Positions 6,832-57,906 of a stretch of DNA of 64,000 nt are shown piece after piece. Source of the DNA: Stegostoma tigrinum (lineage: Eukaryota); contig NC_081373.1 of NCBI RefSeq assembly GCF_030684315.1, positions 29,241,989 through 29,305,988 of the forward strand, given 5' to 3'. Numbering within the stretch: position 1 is the first letter of the stretch; every line of letters starts with the position of its first letter. Position numbers and translations under genes: made by a program. The notes beneath the pieces were generated by a model. That model made no database searches. It was given only the letters and a program-made list of their open reading frames with translations, and had not been told where the DNA came from.

Positions 6832-7854
6832 CCAACACATCATTTTCTGACACTTCCGCCATCTGCAGTCCGACCCCACCACCAAAGACGTTTTTCCCTC
6901 CCCACCCTTATCTGCTTTCCGGAGGGATCACTCTCTCCATGACTCCCTTGTCCGCTCCACACGCCCCTCCAGCCCCACCACACCCAGCACTTTTCACAGC
7001 AACCACAAGAAATGATACACCTGCCCCTACACTTCCCCCCTCACCCCCATCCCAGGCCCCAAGAAGACTTTCCACATCAAGCAGATGTTCACCTGCACAT
7101 CTGCTAATGTGGTATACTGCATCCGCTGTTCCTGTTGTGGCCTCCTCTACACAGGGGAAACCAAGCAGAGGCTTGGGGACCGCTTTGCAGAACACCTACG
7201 TTCGGTTCGCACTAAACAACTGTGCCTCCCAGTTACGAACTATTTCAACTCCTCTTCCCATTCCTCAGACGACATGCCCATCCTGGGCCTCCTGCAGTGC
7301 CACAACGATGCCACCCGAAGGTTGCAGGAACAGCAACTCATATTCCGCTTGGGAACCCTGCAGCCCAAAGGTATCAATGTGGGCTTCACAAGCTTCAAAA
7401 TCTCCCCTCCCCCTACCACATCCTAAAACCAGCCCAGCTTGCCCCTGCCTCCCTAACCTGTCCTTCCTTCCACCTATCCCCTCCTCCTACCTCAAACTCC
7501 AAGCCCATCTCCAACCTACTAACCTCATCCCGCCTCCTTGACCTGTCCATCCTCCCTGGACTGACCTATCTCCTCCCTAACTCCCCACCTACACTCACCT
7601 TTACTGGCTACATCCCCGCCTCTTTGGCCTGTCTGTCTCCTCGCCACCTATCTTCTCCTCTATCCATCTTCTATCCACCTCCCGCTCTCTTCCTATTTAT
7701 TTCAGAATCCCCTTCCCCTCTCCCGTTTCTGAAGAAGGGTCTAGGCCCAAAACGTCAGCCTTCCTGCTCCTGTGATGCTGCTTGGCCTGCTGTGTTCATC
7801 CAGCTCTACACCTTGTTATCTCAGATTCTCCAGCATCTGCAGTTTCCACAATCT
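6832..7854 (+). mobile_element. 5'-truncated Penelope-like element (Neptune-type), family 1
   Basis: GIY-YIG ORF, C-rich 3' UTR, hammerhead motif 7729-7756; 13-bp TSD cttataaaaaaaa at 6819-6831 and 7855-7867. Confidence 0.92.
7085..7426 (+). pseudogene. GIY-YIG endonuclease domain of PLE (open frame, but part of a truncated copy)
   Basis: NVVYCIRCSCCGLLYTGETKQRLGDRFAEH...HFN-like...EQQLIFRLGTLQPKGIN: GIY/YIG halves, conserved R, E and N, and the CCHH motif typical of PLE endonucleases. Confidence 0.9.
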
Positions 7855-9564
7855 CTTATAAAAAAAAGCCCACACTTTGTACAGAGATTGTCCATTCATA
7901 TTATATTTCTTGCCCTTAGTTCCAAATTTGCGCACATACTTTCTTGATAATGTGCACTTATCTTAAAGACCAGTAGAAGAATTCCTCCTCACAATGAATT
8001 TCATGTCAATAAAATTCTGACATAACCAGAGGTTTCTTTTTCAAAATCACATATTGTGAAAGTATCACCTGGTAAGTCCGTTAATCTTGAAGAATTGGTT
8101 AAAGGTTTAAACTTGTATGCTATATCAAGCTAAATTATTTGCATGCCGACCTACCTTCAAAACTGAATATATAATTTTCAGCTCCAGCTTTCAAAAGGTA
8201 CAATCACTTAGAAGATCAGCTGTTATCTCACATTTGAGATCTTTGTGGAAAAAAGAACATTACATTTATCAACAGCAAATGTTAAGGAAATAACAACAAT
8301 CTTCCCATAAGAGCCGTAATTGTGCCAAACTTTTTTAAAACTTCTGTCAGTGTTGTATTAATAAATAACTGCACATTGCAACAAAGGCACAAGTAGTTAT
8401 AACAGCAAATAGCACATTCTCTGAATATTGAGTTCTAAACTTGTCTTTTCATGATTTGTGGCTCTGTCACTGGAAGTATTTTTCAATGTCATTGCCAAAG
8501 CCCATGCTGTCACTAACATGGTCAGCTAGGGAATAGGACACATAACACAAGGATCTTAAAATTAATAGGTGCTGTTGCAAGTGGCAAAGGTGATAAACTA
8601 CTATTTAGCTACTAGTAGCATAACATTGCTGCAGGACATTATTATGAAATAATGTTGTTTTGTCAGATTTTAATCATGTTTCAAACAATCTGTTTCAATA
8701 TTTACATTACAATTTTGAGACAGGGTCTTTCAGGGTTGATTGAAGCTTTGTTTCTTTTGTTGGTTTCCAAGGTTTAACTTGAACAAACTGATTTTAAAGT
8801 TGCAACCTAATGCCTCAATGTTAAACACTTTTCACTGTGGCACAGTTGCTGTGGCTGGAAGCAGTCAAAATGTGTAGGGACTGCTCAGTCGTGAGTCACC
8901 TGCTTAAAATGGGATTATAATTTCATACCAGTGACCTGTAGTCATTCAACAAGAACATTTTTTGTTGCGAGTATGTTGTGCCTAGAATCACCAGCATCTT
9001 CATGCACATGCGCAGGAAGTACACAAATTAACCCTTTCACTGGAAAATTGCCAAAATACTATTCAGCTTGTTTATATAATTTATTTCATAGTAAACCCAT
9101 AAAAATGCTTCAAATGTATGATCTTTGACAGACTATGCCTGAATTTAAACCTAAAACCCTCAAAATAAGCACGTTTCAAACAGTTTAGAAATCAAAGGAG
9201 ATGATACATTTACAGCGGAAACAGTCCAATGAGGTGAAAATGAATATAATTAGAAGAAAGATTTCTCTGCATAACTAAAGCTATAAAGGTTACAATGAGA
9301 CAACAGAATGGATATCATCCTCAATGGTCATGCAGTAAAAGTACAGCTGAACATAGAAAGTAGAGAGGAGATTTAAAAATAAAAAGAACGAGGAATGAAA
9401 ACAGTGTATAACAATTGTTTACTAGATAACAAAATGGGAATTCACAAGTAATTTCTTAACACATCATGACATAGTTGAACAAAAAGTGTACCTTATTTCT
9501 CCTCAATAGGAGAAATGTTCAAATGTAGCACCAGAGGAGCAGGGAATTTTATGGGAACAGAACT

Positions 9565-24966: not shown

Positions 24967-25316
24967 CTTCAGCTCTCAGCCAACAGCTCATAGCTCCAAA
25001 TGAAAATTGATAAAACAAAAATAAAAATTTTGAAGGTCTTGGCATGTAGAAAATAGGAGCAAGAGTAATCCTTTCAGTCCTTGGAAGACAAACAGGAGGC
25101 TGGAAGAACAGAGATAAAGGGAACTGCAGTTGCTGGAGAATCCAAGATAGCATCTGCAGTTCCCATTATCTCTGTTCTTCCAGCCTCCTGTTTGTCTTCC
25201 AAGGGCTGAAGGGATTACTCCTGCTCCTATTTTCTACGTGCCGAGACCTTCAAAATTTTTATTTTTGTTTTATCAATTTTCATTTGGAGCTGTGAGCTAT
25301 TAGCTGTGGACTGAAG
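24967..25316. repeat. Long inverted repeat (~168-bp arms, 14-nt loop) centred on a PLE 3' end
   Basis: 24967-25134 is the reverse complement of 25149-25316, with mostly transition mismatches. Confidence 0.95.
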
Positions 25317-35374: not shown

Positions 35375-35510
35375 AGATAATAAAATGTGAGGCTGGATGA
35401 ACACAGCAGGCCAAGCAGCATCTCCTGAGATGCTGCTTGGCCTGCTGTGTTCATCCAGCCTCACATTTTATTATCTTGGAATCTCCAGCATCTGCAGTTC
35501 CCATTATCTC
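35375..35510. mobile_element. Palindromic mini-PLE
   Basis: Perfect 54-bp arms (35371-35424 and 35427-35480); exact 14-bp TSD tcaactattatcca at 35361-35374 and 35511-35524. Confidence 0.95.
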
Positions 35511-38500
35511 TCAACTATTATCCAGTTGGGTGCACCTCAGAAGGCATGAGTTATTTGTCTAATGCTTCTGCTGTCCTTAAAAAGCATTCTCATTTAGGTT
35601 TGATTGTTCAATCCCTTACAGAAACAAGTATTTCCATCAGTCATACCAAGCACAGCAGAAGATGGTTTTGTTTTTTGGAGGGCCATCATCTTAATCTCAG
35701 AACAGCAGTGCAGCAGTTTCTTTGGATTTGAATGTTTAAATTTGAAGGCCAGTTAGAAAGGTTGACAATGGAGGAAGGAGATAGGGAAAGATGCAGAGAA
35801 CTTTAAAGTGATAACAGAACCATGAACTGGCTCAAGTAAATCTTATGTTATTTCATTACAGAAAGCTCATCTAGCCAATAGAAATGTAAGTATAGTGAAT
35901 GTGATGTTAGAAAGCCAATCTGTTTTTTCCTTACCATAAAACAGTGCAATTAAAAGCAAATTGGTGATAGTTGAATGGTAAACCAGTGAAAATAGAGCAA
36001 GTTATCTGACACTTATGGGAGCTGGAAGTGTGCTGTTTGGTCAAAGATTTTGGTTGACCAAGACGTCTGTATAATCAATATAAATCATACACTAAATAAT
36101 GCAGGCTGTGTACACATTACAGTTATACCTTACTTACAGTATAAATCACTTAATAATAATACGTTATTAATACAAGGTTGACTTAAACTTACAGGCAGAG
36201 AGCCTTCTCACTCCCATCCTCAACTGACTAATTAGACATTGTGACATTGTGATAATACTATAAACTTATGGTATTTCAGGTATCTATTTTTTGCCATTTC
36301 ATCAAGAACGTCAGTTTATAAGGTGCTGGTTGAAACAAAGTTTACTGTAATATGATATTTTCAGAATCTTCAGAAAAGACAATATCAACAAAGGAAATGG
36401 GTGTTAAAACACCAACAATGACACATATGAAACATATTCTAAAAGAACATGCTAGAGTGGGGCTTTGGCTCCAGGCAGACAAGGGAATTCACCCTTGAAT
36501 TCTGCCACAGTGAATCAGATTACTGGAAGTTTTTGTCGTTTAGGGAGAAGCATTTTCTCACTCCTCTAACAAAACAAGTGGACAGATTAATATTTTGAGA
36601 GCTGATGGGACAGGTTGGTGGCTGGTAATATGCTTTACATTTCAGATAGTCTGATTAACAAGGAATTATTATTACAGGTGTATTGAGATTTATAAATATG
36701 GCTCTTTGTACAAAATATTTTAAAATTGACTTGATTGACAATATTGTTACTTGGGAAATTGTTTCTAGGTTACTTTTTAAAACAGTTGATTTTAAGCTGG
36801 GTAATGATTCAACAAGTATGAAATTCTTGCCATTTCTGACAGCTTCAAGTGAAACAGCTGAGATGAGATAAACAGAGATTTTACAGGTGAAATATCCTGG
36901 ACATTCTCTGCTTGTGGAGTAGCTTTAGCCAAGCTCCTAAAGCTGAAAAATAACCAGCCTTGGACCAAGAAATGATGGTATCAGAAATGCAAGAATTTCA
37001 GTAAAAGCCTAAAGAGCTACAGTCTGCCAAAGAGAAAAAAGAACTGATTAGTGTAAGGGACCAACAGTCAAGTGCAAAACATGAATTTACGGATGAAAAA
37101 TGCAAAGTGGTGACAACAGTTGAGCATTGGCTGCAGGAAGTGAAACACTTGAATGAATGTTTGAAACATCCAAATGATAAAATGTTGAAGTAGCCAGATC
37201 TTGATGGACTTCAAGTACCAGAGGCCTGTGTGAGGTATCATGAAAAATGCTTTGAATAAGAGAAAGAATTGTTCATGATACTGAACAATTGCCTGAAAAC
37301 AGACTTAAAAGCCCAAACTTACAAAACTATTGGAACGTCATCTTAGGAAGAATAATCAAAGTGTTGAACACCAATGCAATCTGAAGAACAAGAACGGTAA
37401 TTTGTACAGTGGAAGAGCAAATCAAGACTTTAAAAGCAACTAAGGAAAAATTTAAGGATCAGACTGAAGTGATGATAAATAAGTCAAGAGATTCTAAGAT
37501 GTAGTCTGCAAATATAAAAATAAAATTCCAAAATAAACAGAGTTCCCATATGAAGTGGTCAGACTAGTGAGAAGCTTCTACTGAAATTTCTAACACTAAG
37601 AACCATCTAACTGAGTAGATTGGTGCAGTTGTTAAGCTGAATAAAAAGTTCAACCAACTTGGGAAATAATTGGAGAATAATAAGACAGTAAATTTTCGGA
37701 AGTAGTTATAAACAAAGTGGAAATGAAAACTTATTGTTTGAAGAATCAGTAGGAAGAAAATGATGTGTGCAGAAGACTGTAGTACGCCATTCAGATAAAC
37801 TTGGAAATGGTTTGGGTGAATAGAGCAAAGCACCATTGGTGCAAGTTCATTCATCTATGATGACAAAACATTATCTGGAACGCTTGAGGATGATAATTAT
37901 GAATCTCATCAATCTGAAATATGTGTTTTCAATTCTAAAATTAAAGGACCCATTGAACGTGTGCTTCAAAAGAAAAGTAAGAAAAAGAACGTTCTTCAGT
38001 ATTCAAATTGAGAAACAGCTGTTAAAAGTCATTTGTATTATACAGTATGAGGGAAGTTTTTTGTATGTGAAGGGGGAAAGCCACCAGAGTATTAATTCAT
38101 AGTTACACCAGAATATTTGAAAACCTATGGTATATAATAGAAATATTATGTTAATGAAGGAAATTATCAACATATGATGTACATCCACAACTGAAACTCT
38201 TAACATTAAGTTCACATTTACATGATTTCTTTGAGAAGAAATACCAAAAGATAACTAGTCCATTGTTAATAATAATTCACTAAAAATGCTTGGGTGGAGG
38301 CACTGTTCTGAAGTAGCTATCAAAATATACTGTTGAAGCTGATTAGGGACTCTTAGTCATATGCCTGGCCAGGTTAAACTGACCTGGAACCACTTGATGC
38401 TGACATTTGGTATGGGAAGTGAAAAGTAATTTATTCATGGCACTGGCATCCTGAATCTTGATGAGCGTAATATTCAGAGTTCAACATTGAGAAAATTAAA

Positions 38501-48205: not shown

Positions 48206-48292
48206 AACAAAATGCATCCTTTAAAATCCCACCTACCTCTTGCACCTCATGATTTGAGCCACAGTTAGGAACTGAACAGGATCCATTTTTAA

Positions 48293-48376
48293 GAGATAAT
48301 AGGAACTGCAGATACTGGAGAATCCGAGATAACAAAGTGTGGAGCTAAATGAACACAGCGGGCCAAGCAGCATCAG
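48293..48376 (-). mobile_element. PLE family 1 3'-terminal ~84 nt, fused to a tRNA copy
   Basis: gagataataggaactgcagatactggagaatccgagataac...ggccaagcagcatcag. Confidence 0.92.
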
Positions 48377-48381
48377 GTCTT

Positions 48382-48455
48382 GGCTGGATAGCTCAGTTGG
48401 TTACAGTGTGGTGCTAATAATGCCAAGGTCACGGGTTTGACCCCCGTAGGATCCA
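48382..48455 (+). pseudogene. tRNA-Ile(AAT) retrocopy/pseudogene
   Basis: GGCTGGATAGCTCAGTTGGTTACAGTGTGGTGCT-AAT-AATGCCAAGGTCACGGGTTTGACCCCCGTA matches vertebrate tRNA-Ile-AAT with CpG-decay changes; the T-loop (TTTGA) is damaged and the 3' acceptor strand is supplied by target DNA. Confidence 0.9.
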
Positions 48456-51400
48456 TTTTTAACACGTGTAGTGAATAGGAACTTGATGTACATGCTATTA
48501 TCTTGTCCCAAAAATTAATGACCTTCCAATAGGAAATAAAAACCTTCTGAAAACTAACATCACCATGCCTGTCCCAAGACTTGCCTATTATCTGTAGCTG
48601 AAAAATGGACAAAATGTAATCTTAATAGGAATTCCAATCTCTAAGATTGTGTTTGTAATAAAACAATGATATTAAATTTTACATACAAAAAATTGCCACA
48701 TTTTGCTATTGCTAAGAAATAGTTTACCAATTCAACAGTCATAGTTTATTTTTGTATAAGCTATATTTACAATAATTCAAACTTTCATTTGGTAGAGCTA
48801 TAAAAATTACCTCATGAAAGGGAATCATCCTGGATATTTTGCCTGTTCTGGTGATGATAATTTCAATGGATCATTTTACCTTAGGGCTTCAGTGCGCACA
48901 CTCCTTGCAACAATAAAACAAATGGACTTTGTACAGGTTGGGCTGAAGGGCTAAAATTGCTGATGATATCTGAGAACTGCATGACCTGGAATGAGTCCTG
49001 TGAACATCCCTGTACATGTGGTATTTGCTTTTGTACTTGCTGTTTGTTACACTGCATAAAAGAGAGAGTTTCATTCCAAGTCGCTGGGCTTCACCTCAGA
49101 CCTGGATCATGAACAGTACCAGGAATGAATCTAAGCCTCTAGAGTAACTGTTGTTTGAGGGGATTCCGATGCAGAGGGACATAAGGCTGCTTGCTTCTTT
49201 TTCCTTTCTTTTCCATTTTTTCCCCTTTTATTGTTATTTTATACATGTTTATATTGATGCAAATTGCTGTTGTTGATTCTTCTCTTAATCACATTTAACT
49301 AAATCCATAAGAAGCGCTTGGATACGCTGTGGTCCAAGACAGACTTTTACCTGTGGTAATTTTAATAACATTCAAATTTATTTACTTAGTGAAATGAAGT
49401 TTTGGGTGAAAATGTTATTACAACAGGGCAAATGCAGCACCAGAAGAGTTTCCTGTATTTGTTTCCAGTATGTCTGCAACAAAACAAAATTGCTAAAAGC
49501 AGAATAATGGCTCCTGTGTAGTCACCAGTACGTCTTACTTGTGTGTAGAGCCAAATAGATTAGGCAGTTTATTTTAAGGACACAAGAAGATGTTGATAAA
49601 CTCATAAAAGTTTTGTTGTTGTGGGTTTATATTGCATATGTTCCTCAATCATATTTCACTGCTTATATAACATACCATCTCTTTTTTATTGTAGTGCATT
49701 TGATTCCTTTAAAAATCTATGATTTAATAGATGAAGTGTGCTTATTTTATACCTGAGCTAGATTTATTTATTTAATTATACAGTTTGAAATGACAGCTCT
49801 GTGACATTTGCCATATAAAATGCACTCAGCGGTTACTGCACAATAATAGATCAAATTAAGGGTTTCCTGCTCATCAATTGCAGACTATTCATTAATAAAT
49901 AAGTGCTAATAAATTCACAATCATAAATCTTTCTCTCACATTAATTTTGACTTTTTTAATATTTTAATTACGTGTTTCTAAATCTTAGGAATTATGCTCA
50001 ACATAAAATAAATTGCACTGCCATAGACTGTGTGCTATTCCAAACATGCATGCCATCTTTTTCCTTGTTGAACACTTTAGCCTGAGAAGTCAGCACATTG
50101 GGATGAAATCAAATTGCTGGATTACCGATTAACAAATAATTTCAGCAATGTGTTCTACAAACATGTATATTGATTACAACATTATTACAAAAGATTCATT
50201 TGCACTTAGCATTTTAAATACAAATCTATATGTTGTGTCTAATGCAGTAACTATTGAGCTTTATTTGCTAAATGAAATAATTTAAGAAGTGCACAATTTT
50301 TGAACAAATGGCTAAGCCACTTTCAATATGGTTAACTAAGTATTTAATTGTAATTCTGCATGTTAATTGGCAGAATAATAGAACTTAAACAGACTGTGAT
50401 ATCTTTGCATGTTAAGCAAATTCCAGACCTCAGGTGGTGTTTAAAATTCAGCTTCACCAGTAGAATAGCCAATTACTTATGTGATGCTATTTTGCAAAAC
50501 ATGCATCATGACTAATCGTCAACCATGGTAATTTCACTCACTTTCAGACAATTTCTCTTAAAATCAAGTAGAATTCCCCATATTTGCTCTTGCCTTATCA
50601 GCATGTCACCTTTTCTATATTGCTATTTGATCCAAAAATTGGTATTTAGGTAAATGGCTGTTTAGTGGTAACTGCACTTAAGCAACTTCTTTGTAAGTGG
50701 TGTAATCATTACTACAAATAGATCCCTTCAAACAGGCAAAAGTCAATCAATTTGATGAGTAGGAACACAATTATATTTTTCTACACACATTGTTCAAATC
50801 TGAATTAATTATTTTAAAGCACATTATTTATGTGGGCCCTATTTTGTACTTCTCAGTACATCAGCTATATAGTTTATATTAGCTGTGGTGAAAATTGTAT
50901 TTTAAATAATTTTATATATTATTGGTTAAATTTTAAGCTCATTTTAATTAACTACATGATGTAACTTTAGAATATGTTATAAAAAGGCAAAACACGAGGG
51001 GCATCAAGAGAATGAAAGGTGCTAGCATGCCTGAGTCTGCCATTTTCAGTGAAAATATTTCAAATAACGTGCCTAACGAATGGTAGTAGATGCAAGAAAC
51101 TCATATTCCAAACTTGGAAAAAGGAAGTTTTATTGACACTAAGGTGACATTAAGTTGAAAATGTGAAGACTTCATCAGTTACAATGTCATCAGGGCAAAA
51201 CATTTAGTTATTATTTCTTGCACAAGAATCTTGGAGATATCTTTGAAAGGTGAAATCATCCCAAGTTTCATGGAGTTATTTACATAGGTATTGTGAATCT
51301 CAGTTATGACTTCACCCAACAATGCTTCACAGAATTGACACTGCTGTAAGTTAATGGGTCAGCTCAATTGCAGTTTTATGCACACAAATCTTTCTTAACC

Positions 51401-56285: not shown

Positions 56286-57906
56286 TGTAATAACCCCACA
56301 GAGGCCAGTATCCTGTTATCAAATTCCCCCTTTATTTGTGCGTGGAAATTCCTTGGCACTGATCCAGCTCCCTCAGAGCCACACCTCAGAGTCAACAGGA
56401 TGTCTGATACTCCTGTACTTACCTGTTGACCAGGGCTTCCTGATTGTACCAGATTAACTGCCCCAATCAAGGAACTCATATTCTATGAAGTCCAGAGATA
56501 ATGGGAACTGCAGATGCTGGAGAATCCAAGATAATAAAGTATGAAGCCGGTTGAACACAGTAGGCCAAGCACCATGTCAGGAGCACAAAAGCTGACATTT
56601 CGGGCCTAGACCCTCCATCAGAGAGGGGGATGGGGAGAGGGTTCTGAAATAAATAGGGAGAGAGGGGAAGGCAGACCGAGGATGGATAGAGGAGAGGATA
56701 GGTGGAGAGGAGTGTATAGGTGGGGAGGTGGGGAGGGGTTAGGTCAGTCCAGGGAGGACGGACAGGTCAAGGAGGTGGGATGAGGTTAGTAGGTAGGAAA
56801 CGGAGGTGCGGCTTGAGGGGGGAGGAGGGGATAGGTGAGAGGAAGAACAGGTTAGGGAGGCGGGGACAAGCTGGGCTGGTTTTGGGATGCAGTGGAGGAA
56901 GGGGAGATTTTGAAGCTTGTGAGGTCCACATTGATACCATTGGGCTGTAGGGTTCCCAAGCGGAATATCTGACCCCACCACCCAAGACATTTTTCCATCC
57001 CCACCCTTGTCTGCCTTCCGCAGAGACCACTCTCTCCATGAGTCCCTCGTCCGCTCCACATTCCCCTCCAATCCCACCACACCCGGCACCTTCCCCTGCA
57101 ACCGCAGGAAGTGCCACACTTGCCCCACACCTCCTCCCTCACCCCCATCCCAGGCCCCAAGACGACTTTCCATATTAGGCAGATGTTCACCTGCACATCT
57201 GCCAATGCAGTATACTCTTCCACTGTACCCAGATTGGCTTCCTCTACATTGGGGAAACCAAGCGGAGGCTTGGGGACCGCTTTGCAGAACACCTTCGCTC
57301 GGTTCGCAATAAACATCTGCACCTCCCAGTCGCGAACCATTTTAACTCCCCCTCCCATTCCTTAGAGGGCATGTCCATCATGGGCCTCCTGCAGTGCCAC
57401 AATGATGCCACCCAAAGGTTGCAGGAACAGCAACTCATATTCCACTTGGGAACCCTGCAGCCCAATGGTATCAATGTGGACTTCACCAGCTTCAAAATCT
57501 CCCCTTCCCCCTCTGCATCCCAAAACCAACCCAGCTCATCCCCGCCTCCCTAACCTGTTCTCCCTCTCACCTATCCCCTCCTCCCACCTCAAGCCGCATC
57601 TCCATTTCCTACCTACTAACCTCATCCCGCCTCCTTGACCTGTCCGTCCTCCCTGGATTGTCCTATCCCCTCCCCACCTATACACTCCTCTCCACCTATC
57701 TTCTCCTCTATCCATCTTCAGTCTGCCTCCCCCTCTGTCCCTATTTATTTCAGAACTCTCTCCCTATCCCCCTCTCTGATGAAGGGTCTAGGCCTGAAAT
57801 GTCAGCTTTTGTGCTCCTGAGATGCTTCTTGGCCTACTGTGTTCATCCAGCTTCACACGTTGTTTTCTATGAAGTCCACCTGGCTGACCTCGTTACAATC
57901 ACTACA
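56286..57906 (-). mobile_element. Probable ~240-bp solo LTR (TGTAAT...ACTACA) split by a PLE
   Basis: TG...CA ends with imperfect inverted termini and AATAAA on the minus strand (~56330); TSD unclear. Confidence 0.5.
56495..57864. mobile_element. Large tail-out inverted PLE: minus arm 56495-~56968, plus arm ~56969-57864
   Basis: PGTFPCNRRKCHTCP zinc-finger-like linker (Neptune-type) and GIY-YIG remnants; exact 14-bp TSD ttctatgaagtcca at 56481-56494 and 57865-57878. Confidence 0.95.

Follow-up and report, generated by a model that had tools for sequence, protein, structure and literature searches.

A Penelope-like element end and a tRNA-Ile piece within one target site duplication in Stegostoma tigrinum

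Chimeras of LINE-1 and antisense tRNA that lie within one target site duplication (TSD) of 9-19 bp have been reported at 21 loci, and twin priming was proposed as their origin (PMC13174262). Tailless tRNA retropseudogenes are a related class: these are 3'-truncated, derive from processed or unprocessed tRNAs, show short complementarity to the target, and are framed by TSDs (PMC5322556). For Penelope-like elements (PLEs), in vitro work on the protein of the Anolis element Poseidon showed that it cuts and extends both strands, and a dimer is predicted; the protein begins synthesis at two sites that share no homology with the target, which yields an optional tail of 30-40 nt (PMC11167929). In Adineta vaga, PLEs mobilise host genes inside a PLE TSD, for which template jumps were proposed, and inverted PLE structures were put down to self-priming on antisense templates (PMC3846280). 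Two other sources (PMC9977147 and bioRxiv 10.64898/2026.07.22.740005) bear only on non-autonomous partners of PLEs.

Here we describe a chimera of a PLE end and a tRNA-Ile(AAT) piece, which lies in a stretch of 64,000 nt from Stegostoma tigrinum (assembly GCF_030684315.1, contig NC_081373.1, positions 29,241,989 to 29,305,988). We refer to this whole stretch as the window, and unless otherwise noted, positions are those of the window. A sequence-only reading had proposed that the chimera arose in a single insertion.

The element and its usual insertions

We take the repeat to be a Penelope-like element, a label that is based on its putative endonuclease and its insertion anatomy; the copies that we examined are 5'-truncated and reach up to about 1.2 kb. 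Three copies in the window serve as references:

6869 to 7856, plus strand: a longer reference copy of the element, which encodes a putative C-terminal GIY-YIG endonuclease region
35375 to 35511, no strand: comparator, an ordinary insertion of two PLE pieces head to head, TSD of 14 bp
56494 to 57868, no strand: comparator, a long PLE/PLE insertion of the head-to-head type, TSD of 14 bp

The GIY-YIG region of the longer copy matches Pfam with E = 5e-4 and 20.7 bits, which is below the curated cut-off of 22.6; its look-alikes in the Atlas fall in GIY-YIG clusters (0.96) and the GIY-YIG motif is visible in the translation. Several other features of PLEs are present: 5'-truncated copies, inverted arrangements, TSDs, and the optional tail of 30-40 nt, with copies that end at either of two points (0 and about -35). 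By eye, there are words about 100-130 nt from the 3' end that resemble a hammerhead core, and at its gathering cut-off Rfam matched no hammerhead ribozyme in the window.

Many PLE copies in the window consist of two 5'-truncated pieces, head to head, with one duplication around both. We sampled 60 stretches of 10 kb each at fixed coordinates (600 kb in total) and found a TSD of at least 10 bp at 64 of 124 PLE ends and none at the other 60. The 64 ends collapse to 46 insertions, of which 32 are head-to-head (three that were classed as single look twin by eye). The TSDs are 10-17 bp long, with one of 25 and a median of 13, and a few of the long ones are doubtful. Double-ended, head-to-head insertion is thus the norm for this element here. 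None of the 46 TSD-framed insertions in the 600 kb contained a captured small RNA. The sample also held 75 exact copies of our PLE anchor, which extrapolates to about 400,000 in the genome.

Two other observations concern where and how these elements insert. A very short head-to-head insertion at 25110-25172 has flanks that resemble an inverted repeat, which gives a long hairpin-like stretch. Also, in one SINE family many insertions lie near the same spot, immediately 5' of its B-box (for example L066, L068, L073, L074, L093, L099, and L101-L104); this may be a target preference or mere search bias.

A tRNA piece in place of the second PLE arm

At 48278-48462 (G000:C24:29290266-29290450), a PLE end and a tRNA piece share one duplication:

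48278 to 48292, no strand: left copy of the TSD, an exact 15-mer match that abuts the PLE 3' end directly
48293 to 48374, minus strand: terminal 82 nt of the PLE, with its 3' end pointing left (end point set by subfamily comparison)
48375 to 48381, plus strand: putative 5' leader of pre-tRNA-Ile(AAT), with 7 of 8 letters as in the leader of a tRNA-Ile(AAT) gene on contig C60
48382 to 48447, plus strand: nt 1-66 of tRNA-Ile(AAT), decayed (Rfam RF00005), with no CCA and an altered B-box
48448 to 48462, no strand: right copy of the TSD, an exact 15-mer in which 5 of the first 8 letters agree with the tRNA 3' end

The repeat encloses 155 nt (82 nt of PLE, 7 nt of linker, and 66 nt of tRNA). The two pieces are in opposite orientation with their 3' ends outward, and neither is framed by a TSD of its own. 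The perfect 15-bp TSD and the nearly full plus-strand tRNA-Ile(AAT), with both 3' ends outward, are as the sequence-only reading had them. It had also recognised the minus-strand PLE 3' end, which we find to be 82 rather than about 84 nt long, but the linker that it gave as about 5 nt is 7 nt and appears to be templated. Chance would supply 0.43 matches to the 15-mer even at 2 mismatches, and the probability of an exact 15-mer repeat this close to a PLE end (within 500 nt) is about 1.6e-5. Since double-ended insertion is usual in this family, we view the chimera as the ordinary frame with one arm swapped for a tRNA.

Against the ten best full-length PLE ends within the window, the PLE piece shows 84-90% identity. 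Its nearest copies differ from it at 4 of 70 letters, and the similarity stops after 48374. The A at 48292 may be common to the target and the PLE piece. The junction has a 1-nt overlap, the C at 48374, which belongs to both the PLE piece and the leader. No paralogue of the flanks turned up among the loci compared, and no orthologous empty site was seen. Among sequencing runs, a second organism contained 0.10-0.14 of the sequence words and four runs of one study contained 0.89-0.93, figures that carry no weight as evidence.

The tRNA copy scores 32.3 bits against the Rfam tRNA model (cut-off 29), and ARAGORN calls no tRNA there. In place of the intact cloverleaf and internal promoter of a functional tRNA gene, it has a broken acceptor stem and an altered B-box. 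Across nt 1-66 it differs from the gene at 8 positions, and 5 of these are CpG transitions. The copy stops within the acceptor stem. The sequence-only reading took the target to stand in for the missing tRNA 3' end, as a microhomology, but this likeness is weak (5 of 8 letters, p about 0.04). Together, the stop within the acceptor stem and the slight likeness of the target suggest that priming occurred with little pairing.

Which gene supplied the tRNA? Among the best 40 of 66 candidates scored, we found at least six tRNA-Ile(AAT) genes with identical sequences. For one gene (G000:C60:7768772-7768845, seen in L002 and L031), the 5' flank agrees with the linker at 7 of 8 letters, as against only 1-4 of 8 for the leaders of the other five (over six genes, p is about 0.004). 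Because the linker matches the 5' leader of a gene, the likely donor was a pre-tRNA-Ile(AAT) with its leader still attached. The unedited AAT anticodon says little about this, as a G is found there in only 3 of 36 non-gene copies of tRNA-Ile.

We considered and set aside several variants. If the leader-matched gene was the donor, then pairing of the T5 run of the target with its trailer fits at only 1 of 7 letters. For an alternative tRNA-Ile(AAT) gene, the trailer fits at 5 of 7 letters, but the leader at only 4 of 8. The leader of a third gene ends in the same six letters as the border of PLE and linker, but out of register. A decayed tRNA gene with its own T5 terminator would leave the identical upstream copy of the 15-mer unexplained.

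As a separate matter, the same non-CpG change at gene position 23 is present in 7 of the 36 non-gene tRNA-Ile copies, and these have different leaders (L001, L011, L012, L018, L020, L029, and L046).

Captures elsewhere in the genome

We searched the genome (3.2 Gb, 835 contigs) for the PLE anchor near a tRNA B-box pattern and viewed all 56 matches. Five hold tRNA-gene sequence, with the chimera of the window among them. The other four involve two tRNA-Ser, a tRNA-Gly, and a tRNA-Glu, and three of these are confidently traced to donor genes on other contigs. Independent captures in opposite orientation, which the sequence-only reading had suggested looking for, thus exist at four more loci:

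L094, 15-bp TSD: antisense PLE, tRNA-Ser(GCT), and trailer, laid out as in the window
L115, TSD of 9 exact letters plus one mismatch: full tRNA-Ser(GCT), trailer, and T5, laid out as in the window
L070, 14-bp duplication: antisense PLE, tRNA-Gly(GCC), a 189-nt local copy, and a sense PLE end
L071, 9-bp duplication: antisense PLE, 310 nt of a tRNA-Glu(CTC) locus, and about 1.2 kb of sense PLE

By eye, the remaining 51 of the 56 matches are PLEs beside SINE heads or B-box-like repeats, often with a TSD of their own. L019, L061, and L063-L065, in which a PLE adjoins or lies inside a SINE head, were left out of the count.

The donors could be traced to different degrees. L115 is 96% identical over 98 nt to a single gene on contig C12; its copy starts within one base of the gene start and shares 4 letters with the donor past the T5 run. 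In L094, the trailer only loosely fits the best donor (a gene on C4) and runs past a T4 run. The tRNA-Gly(GCC) of L070 has a 7-nt leader (6 of 7 letters match) and a 42-nt trailer that is identical to an array on C1. The tRNA-Glu(CTC) piece of L071 is 84% identical to its donor locus on C44 and extends about 280 nt beyond the end of the gene, through several T runs. The 189-nt piece of L070 (L070:1677-1865) is 100% identical to G000:C4:62495631-62495819, which is 1.2 kb downstream and has a paralogue (81%) another 40 kb away; given this identity, we regard the piece as the apparent capture of a local template. L070 and L071 both interrupt LINE fragments, and the duplicated word is single in 27 and 34 empty paralogous sites, respectively (within 12 nt of register). 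Because the LINE paralogues carry the word once, the duplications at L070 and L071 are true TSDs.

None of the five captures has a CCA tail, two (the window and L070) have 7-nt leaders, and four have trailers. Relative to the second end, all five tRNAs are in the sense orientation. A search for the mirror orientation returned 23 matches and no tRNA (all were viewed by eye and 20 of the 23 were checked with Rfam). Statistical support for a strand bias is thin: 5 versus 0 has a binomial p of 0.03, the simple cases alone (3 versus 0) have p = 0.125, and as a fraction of matches (5/56 versus 0/23) Fisher's exact test gives p = 0.17.

Other patterns added no new captures. With CpG-intact B-box patterns, there were 16 matches including 2 captures, and 6 mirror matches with none. 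A D-arm pattern for tRNAs of the Ala, Lys, Cys, and Tyr type had 2 matches, neither of which is a tRNA. A D-arm pattern for Ser and Leu had 11 matches, and the only captures were L094 and L115; we viewed 4 of the other 9, and the unviewed matches have one PLE-internal word in common. Five captures against roughly 400,000 PLE anchor motifs is on the order of one per 100,000 PLE ends searched. This is a lower bound, because the search relied on exact motifs and on some tRNA types only.

We also noticed some features around these loci. At the junction of L115, the PLE piece repeats a 20-nt unit three times right before the tRNA, which resembles slippage by a reverse transcriptase (RT) as it reaches the end of its template. 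The array on C1 (G000:C1:76141746-76164780) is a tandem array of tRNA-Gly(GCC) genes with a spacing of about 1.5 kb, and the first T4 run is some 70 nt downstream of the gene. Copies of tRNA-Ile or tRNA-Ser are also joined, in head-to-tail order, with the head of an abundant SINE of tRNA origin (L010, L011, L013, L015, L023, L029, L039, L046, L058, L190, and L194). Some of these fusions have gene-specific leaders and trailers, and as same-sense chimeras they recall U6/L1. Finally, L012, L009, L014, L025, and L041-L053 belong to a dispersed family of several tandem tRNA-like units; in L012 the units are similar to Asp, Ile, Gly, and Leu tRNAs and there are three Rfam tRNA matches.

Mechanism, alternatives, and comparison with known systems

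We propose that the chimera probably arose from a single PLE insertion in which the second cut end was primed on a pre-tRNA, that is, by twin priming on two templates. The GIY-YIG endonuclease would have nicked the two strands 15 nt apart, as the TSD indicates. The top-strand end would then have copied 82 nt of PLE RNA from the usual 3' start; the product of this step is seen in the window. The bottom-strand end, which in a head-to-head PLE/PLE insertion would use a second PLE template, may instead have started inside the acceptor stem of the tRNA, with little pairing, and proceeded through the leader to its 5' end. Once the two cDNAs were joined over the 1-nt overlap and the gaps filled, the target would be left duplicated. 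L094 and L115 could have formed in the same way, with a pre-tRNA captured directly at the second end. In L070 and L071, the tRNA would have been reached by a jump from PLE cDNA.

The geometry, TSDs, donors, and recurrence of the captures are direct observations. The single insertion, which the sequence-only reading also favoured, is supported because double-ended anatomy is usual for the element, the TSD is of typical length, the junction was found only once in our searches, and there are four further independent captures; the annealing of a tRNA 3' end that was part of that reading is the weak point. The both-strand extension, homology-free starts, and predicted dimer of the Anolis protein fit the mechanism as well. 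It had further been suggested that a PLE RT can write unrelated small RNAs into the genome. Captures do recur, and the PLE RT itself may have copied the tRNAs and may have copied them from RNA. More tentatively, and with slightly less than an even chance in our view, the telomerase-related RT of PLEs primes both ends of its staggered cut, accepts unrelated nuclear RNAs (nascent Pol III transcripts above all) with hardly any pairing and by template jumps, and makes small-RNA pseudogenes.

If the insertion was a single PLE event, then an open tRNA gene might still have served as a DNA template for the tRNA part, either through a template jump of the RT or for a patch made by a repair polymerase. 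We consider this unlikely. L071 extends about 280 nt past its gene and L070 contains an exact copy of nearby DNA, and these two cases fit a DNA template as well as they fit read-through RNA. L094 passes a T4 run and L115 resembles its donor beyond the T5 run; polymerase III also reads through T4 runs. On the other hand, all five captures are on the strand that is expected from an RNA template, the captures in the window and in L070 begin 7 nt upstream of the gene, L115 begins within a base of the gene start, and the window copy ends inside the tRNA. The lack of CCA and the location of the donors on other contigs also favour RNA. In three to four cases the capture ends at or within the limits of the transcript, although 5' ends do not cluster significantly at the start of the transcript (p about 0.13).

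A somewhat less likely alternative is that the PLE made the cut and its own cDNA, while at the second end, which was left free, the pre-tRNA was copied by another enzyme such as a LINE RT or a repair polymerase. LINE fragments, as recognised by eye, are plentiful in the loci that we examined, and other routes to tRNA retrocopies may exist, given the fusions of tRNA-Ile to SINE heads and the solo copy L188 (see below). However, in L070 and L071 the tRNA follows on from PLE cDNA at the second end, for which template jumps by one enzyme are the simplest explanation, and a PLE protein is able to extend both strands in vitro (PMC11167929).

We think it quite improbable that there were two events, in which a tailless tRNA retrocopy with a 15-bp TSD came first and a PLE later inserted, without a TSD, exactly between the left TSD copy and the leader. 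Tailless retrocopies with leaders are known (PMC5322556), and this genome seems to have one: L188 (G000:C11:71914446-71914522) is a solo, 3'-truncated tRNA-Ser(GCT) with a 12-bp TSD and a 5-nt leader like that of the C12 gene, and by its structure it appears to be a tailless-type retrocopy without a PLE piece. PLE ends are dense (75 anchors in the 600 kb sampled), and at nearly half of the sampled ends (60 of 124) there is no TSD of at least 10 bp. But a base-exact landing would be required at three independent loci, and chance insertions of PLEs into SINE heads often have their own TSD (L064, L080, L102, and L105). If insertions were sequential, solo copies should far outnumber chimeras. Instead, a scan of 57 copies from the tRNA-Ile and tRNA-Ser families, genes included, gave one TSD-framed copy without a PLE (L188) against three chimeras, which is the opposite of this expectation; the scan missed the imperfect TSD of L115.

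An amplifying composite SINE made of a PLE end and a tRNA has next to no chance of being correct and was rejected: although tRNA-Ile-derived repeat families are present in the genome, a tRNA-derived SINE would have many dispersed copies of one structure, but among 43 matches (from the best 40 of 294 candidates) and 5 exact-pattern matches only the window spans the junction, the other captures have different tRNAs, junctions, and TSDs, and the tRNA promoter faces away from the PLE piece. (Our DNA similarity searches scored the best 40 candidates of 294, 66, and 108.) The sequence-only reading had named many identical junctions as the sign of such a SINE, and had also seen in the chimera a possible route to new SINEs. 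With its altered B-box, outward-facing promoter, and a junction found once, the chimera does not bear this out. The chimera is likely a dead, single-copy by-product. More generally, the tRNA captures are real, recurrent, and rare by-products that probably have no function, and with rare captures and decayed products, the effect on the host looks small.

The captures are nevertheless informative about how PLEs insert. Head-to-head copies might be due to self-priming on antisense RNA or to the both-strand extension that is seen in vitro, and a foreign RNA at the second end, because its polarity is known, serves as a natural reporter of how an insertion is finished. According to these reporters, priming at the second end uses a separate template of the sense strand, and PLE RNA need not be recognised. 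If the more tentative reading above is correct, then sense-strand captures favour two-ended priming over antisense self-priming as the source of head-to-head structures, and PLEs would be an unreported general source of small-RNA pseudogenes in PLE-rich vertebrate genomes, including solo copies like L188. The two-ended model can be tested by genome mining and one in vitro assay, and it bears on the use of PLE proteins as writers of chosen RNAs into DNA.

In the open-access literature, we found no report of tRNA capture by a PLE. The novelty that the sequence-only reading suggested holds to this extent for PLEs, but the same antisense capture of tRNA is published for LINE-1 (PMC13174262). The L1 chimeras resemble ours in that the pieces are in opposite orientation with 3' ends outward, share one TSD, and are rare. 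They differ in that most contain 5' halves of tRNAs, whereas here the element has a GIY-YIG endonuclease and the pieces are nearly full-length, with leaders and trailers. In its main text, PMC13174262 uses none of the terms Penelope, precursor, pre-tRNA, and trailer. The tailless retropseudogenes of PMC5322556 are attributed to L1 in therian mammals and include no piece of the mobiliser; here, the PLE piece is present.

As to PLEs, the elements described in PMC8557442 and PMC11167929 have an inverted 5'-truncated copy beside the main copy, as here, and their tail of 30-40 nt matches the two end points that we see. In the available parts of these two papers, only the element's own RNA serves as template, with no cellular RNA at the second end. 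In Adineta vaga (PMC3846280), the mobilised sequences are intron-containing genes that are framed by pLTRs, and the text available to us does not mention tRNA, whereas here tRNAs are captured. The sense-strand tRNA at the second end also favours two-ended target priming over the self-priming put forward there. What seems new here is an L1-like capture, probably by twin priming, in a different class of element, and one that takes precursor-type pieces.
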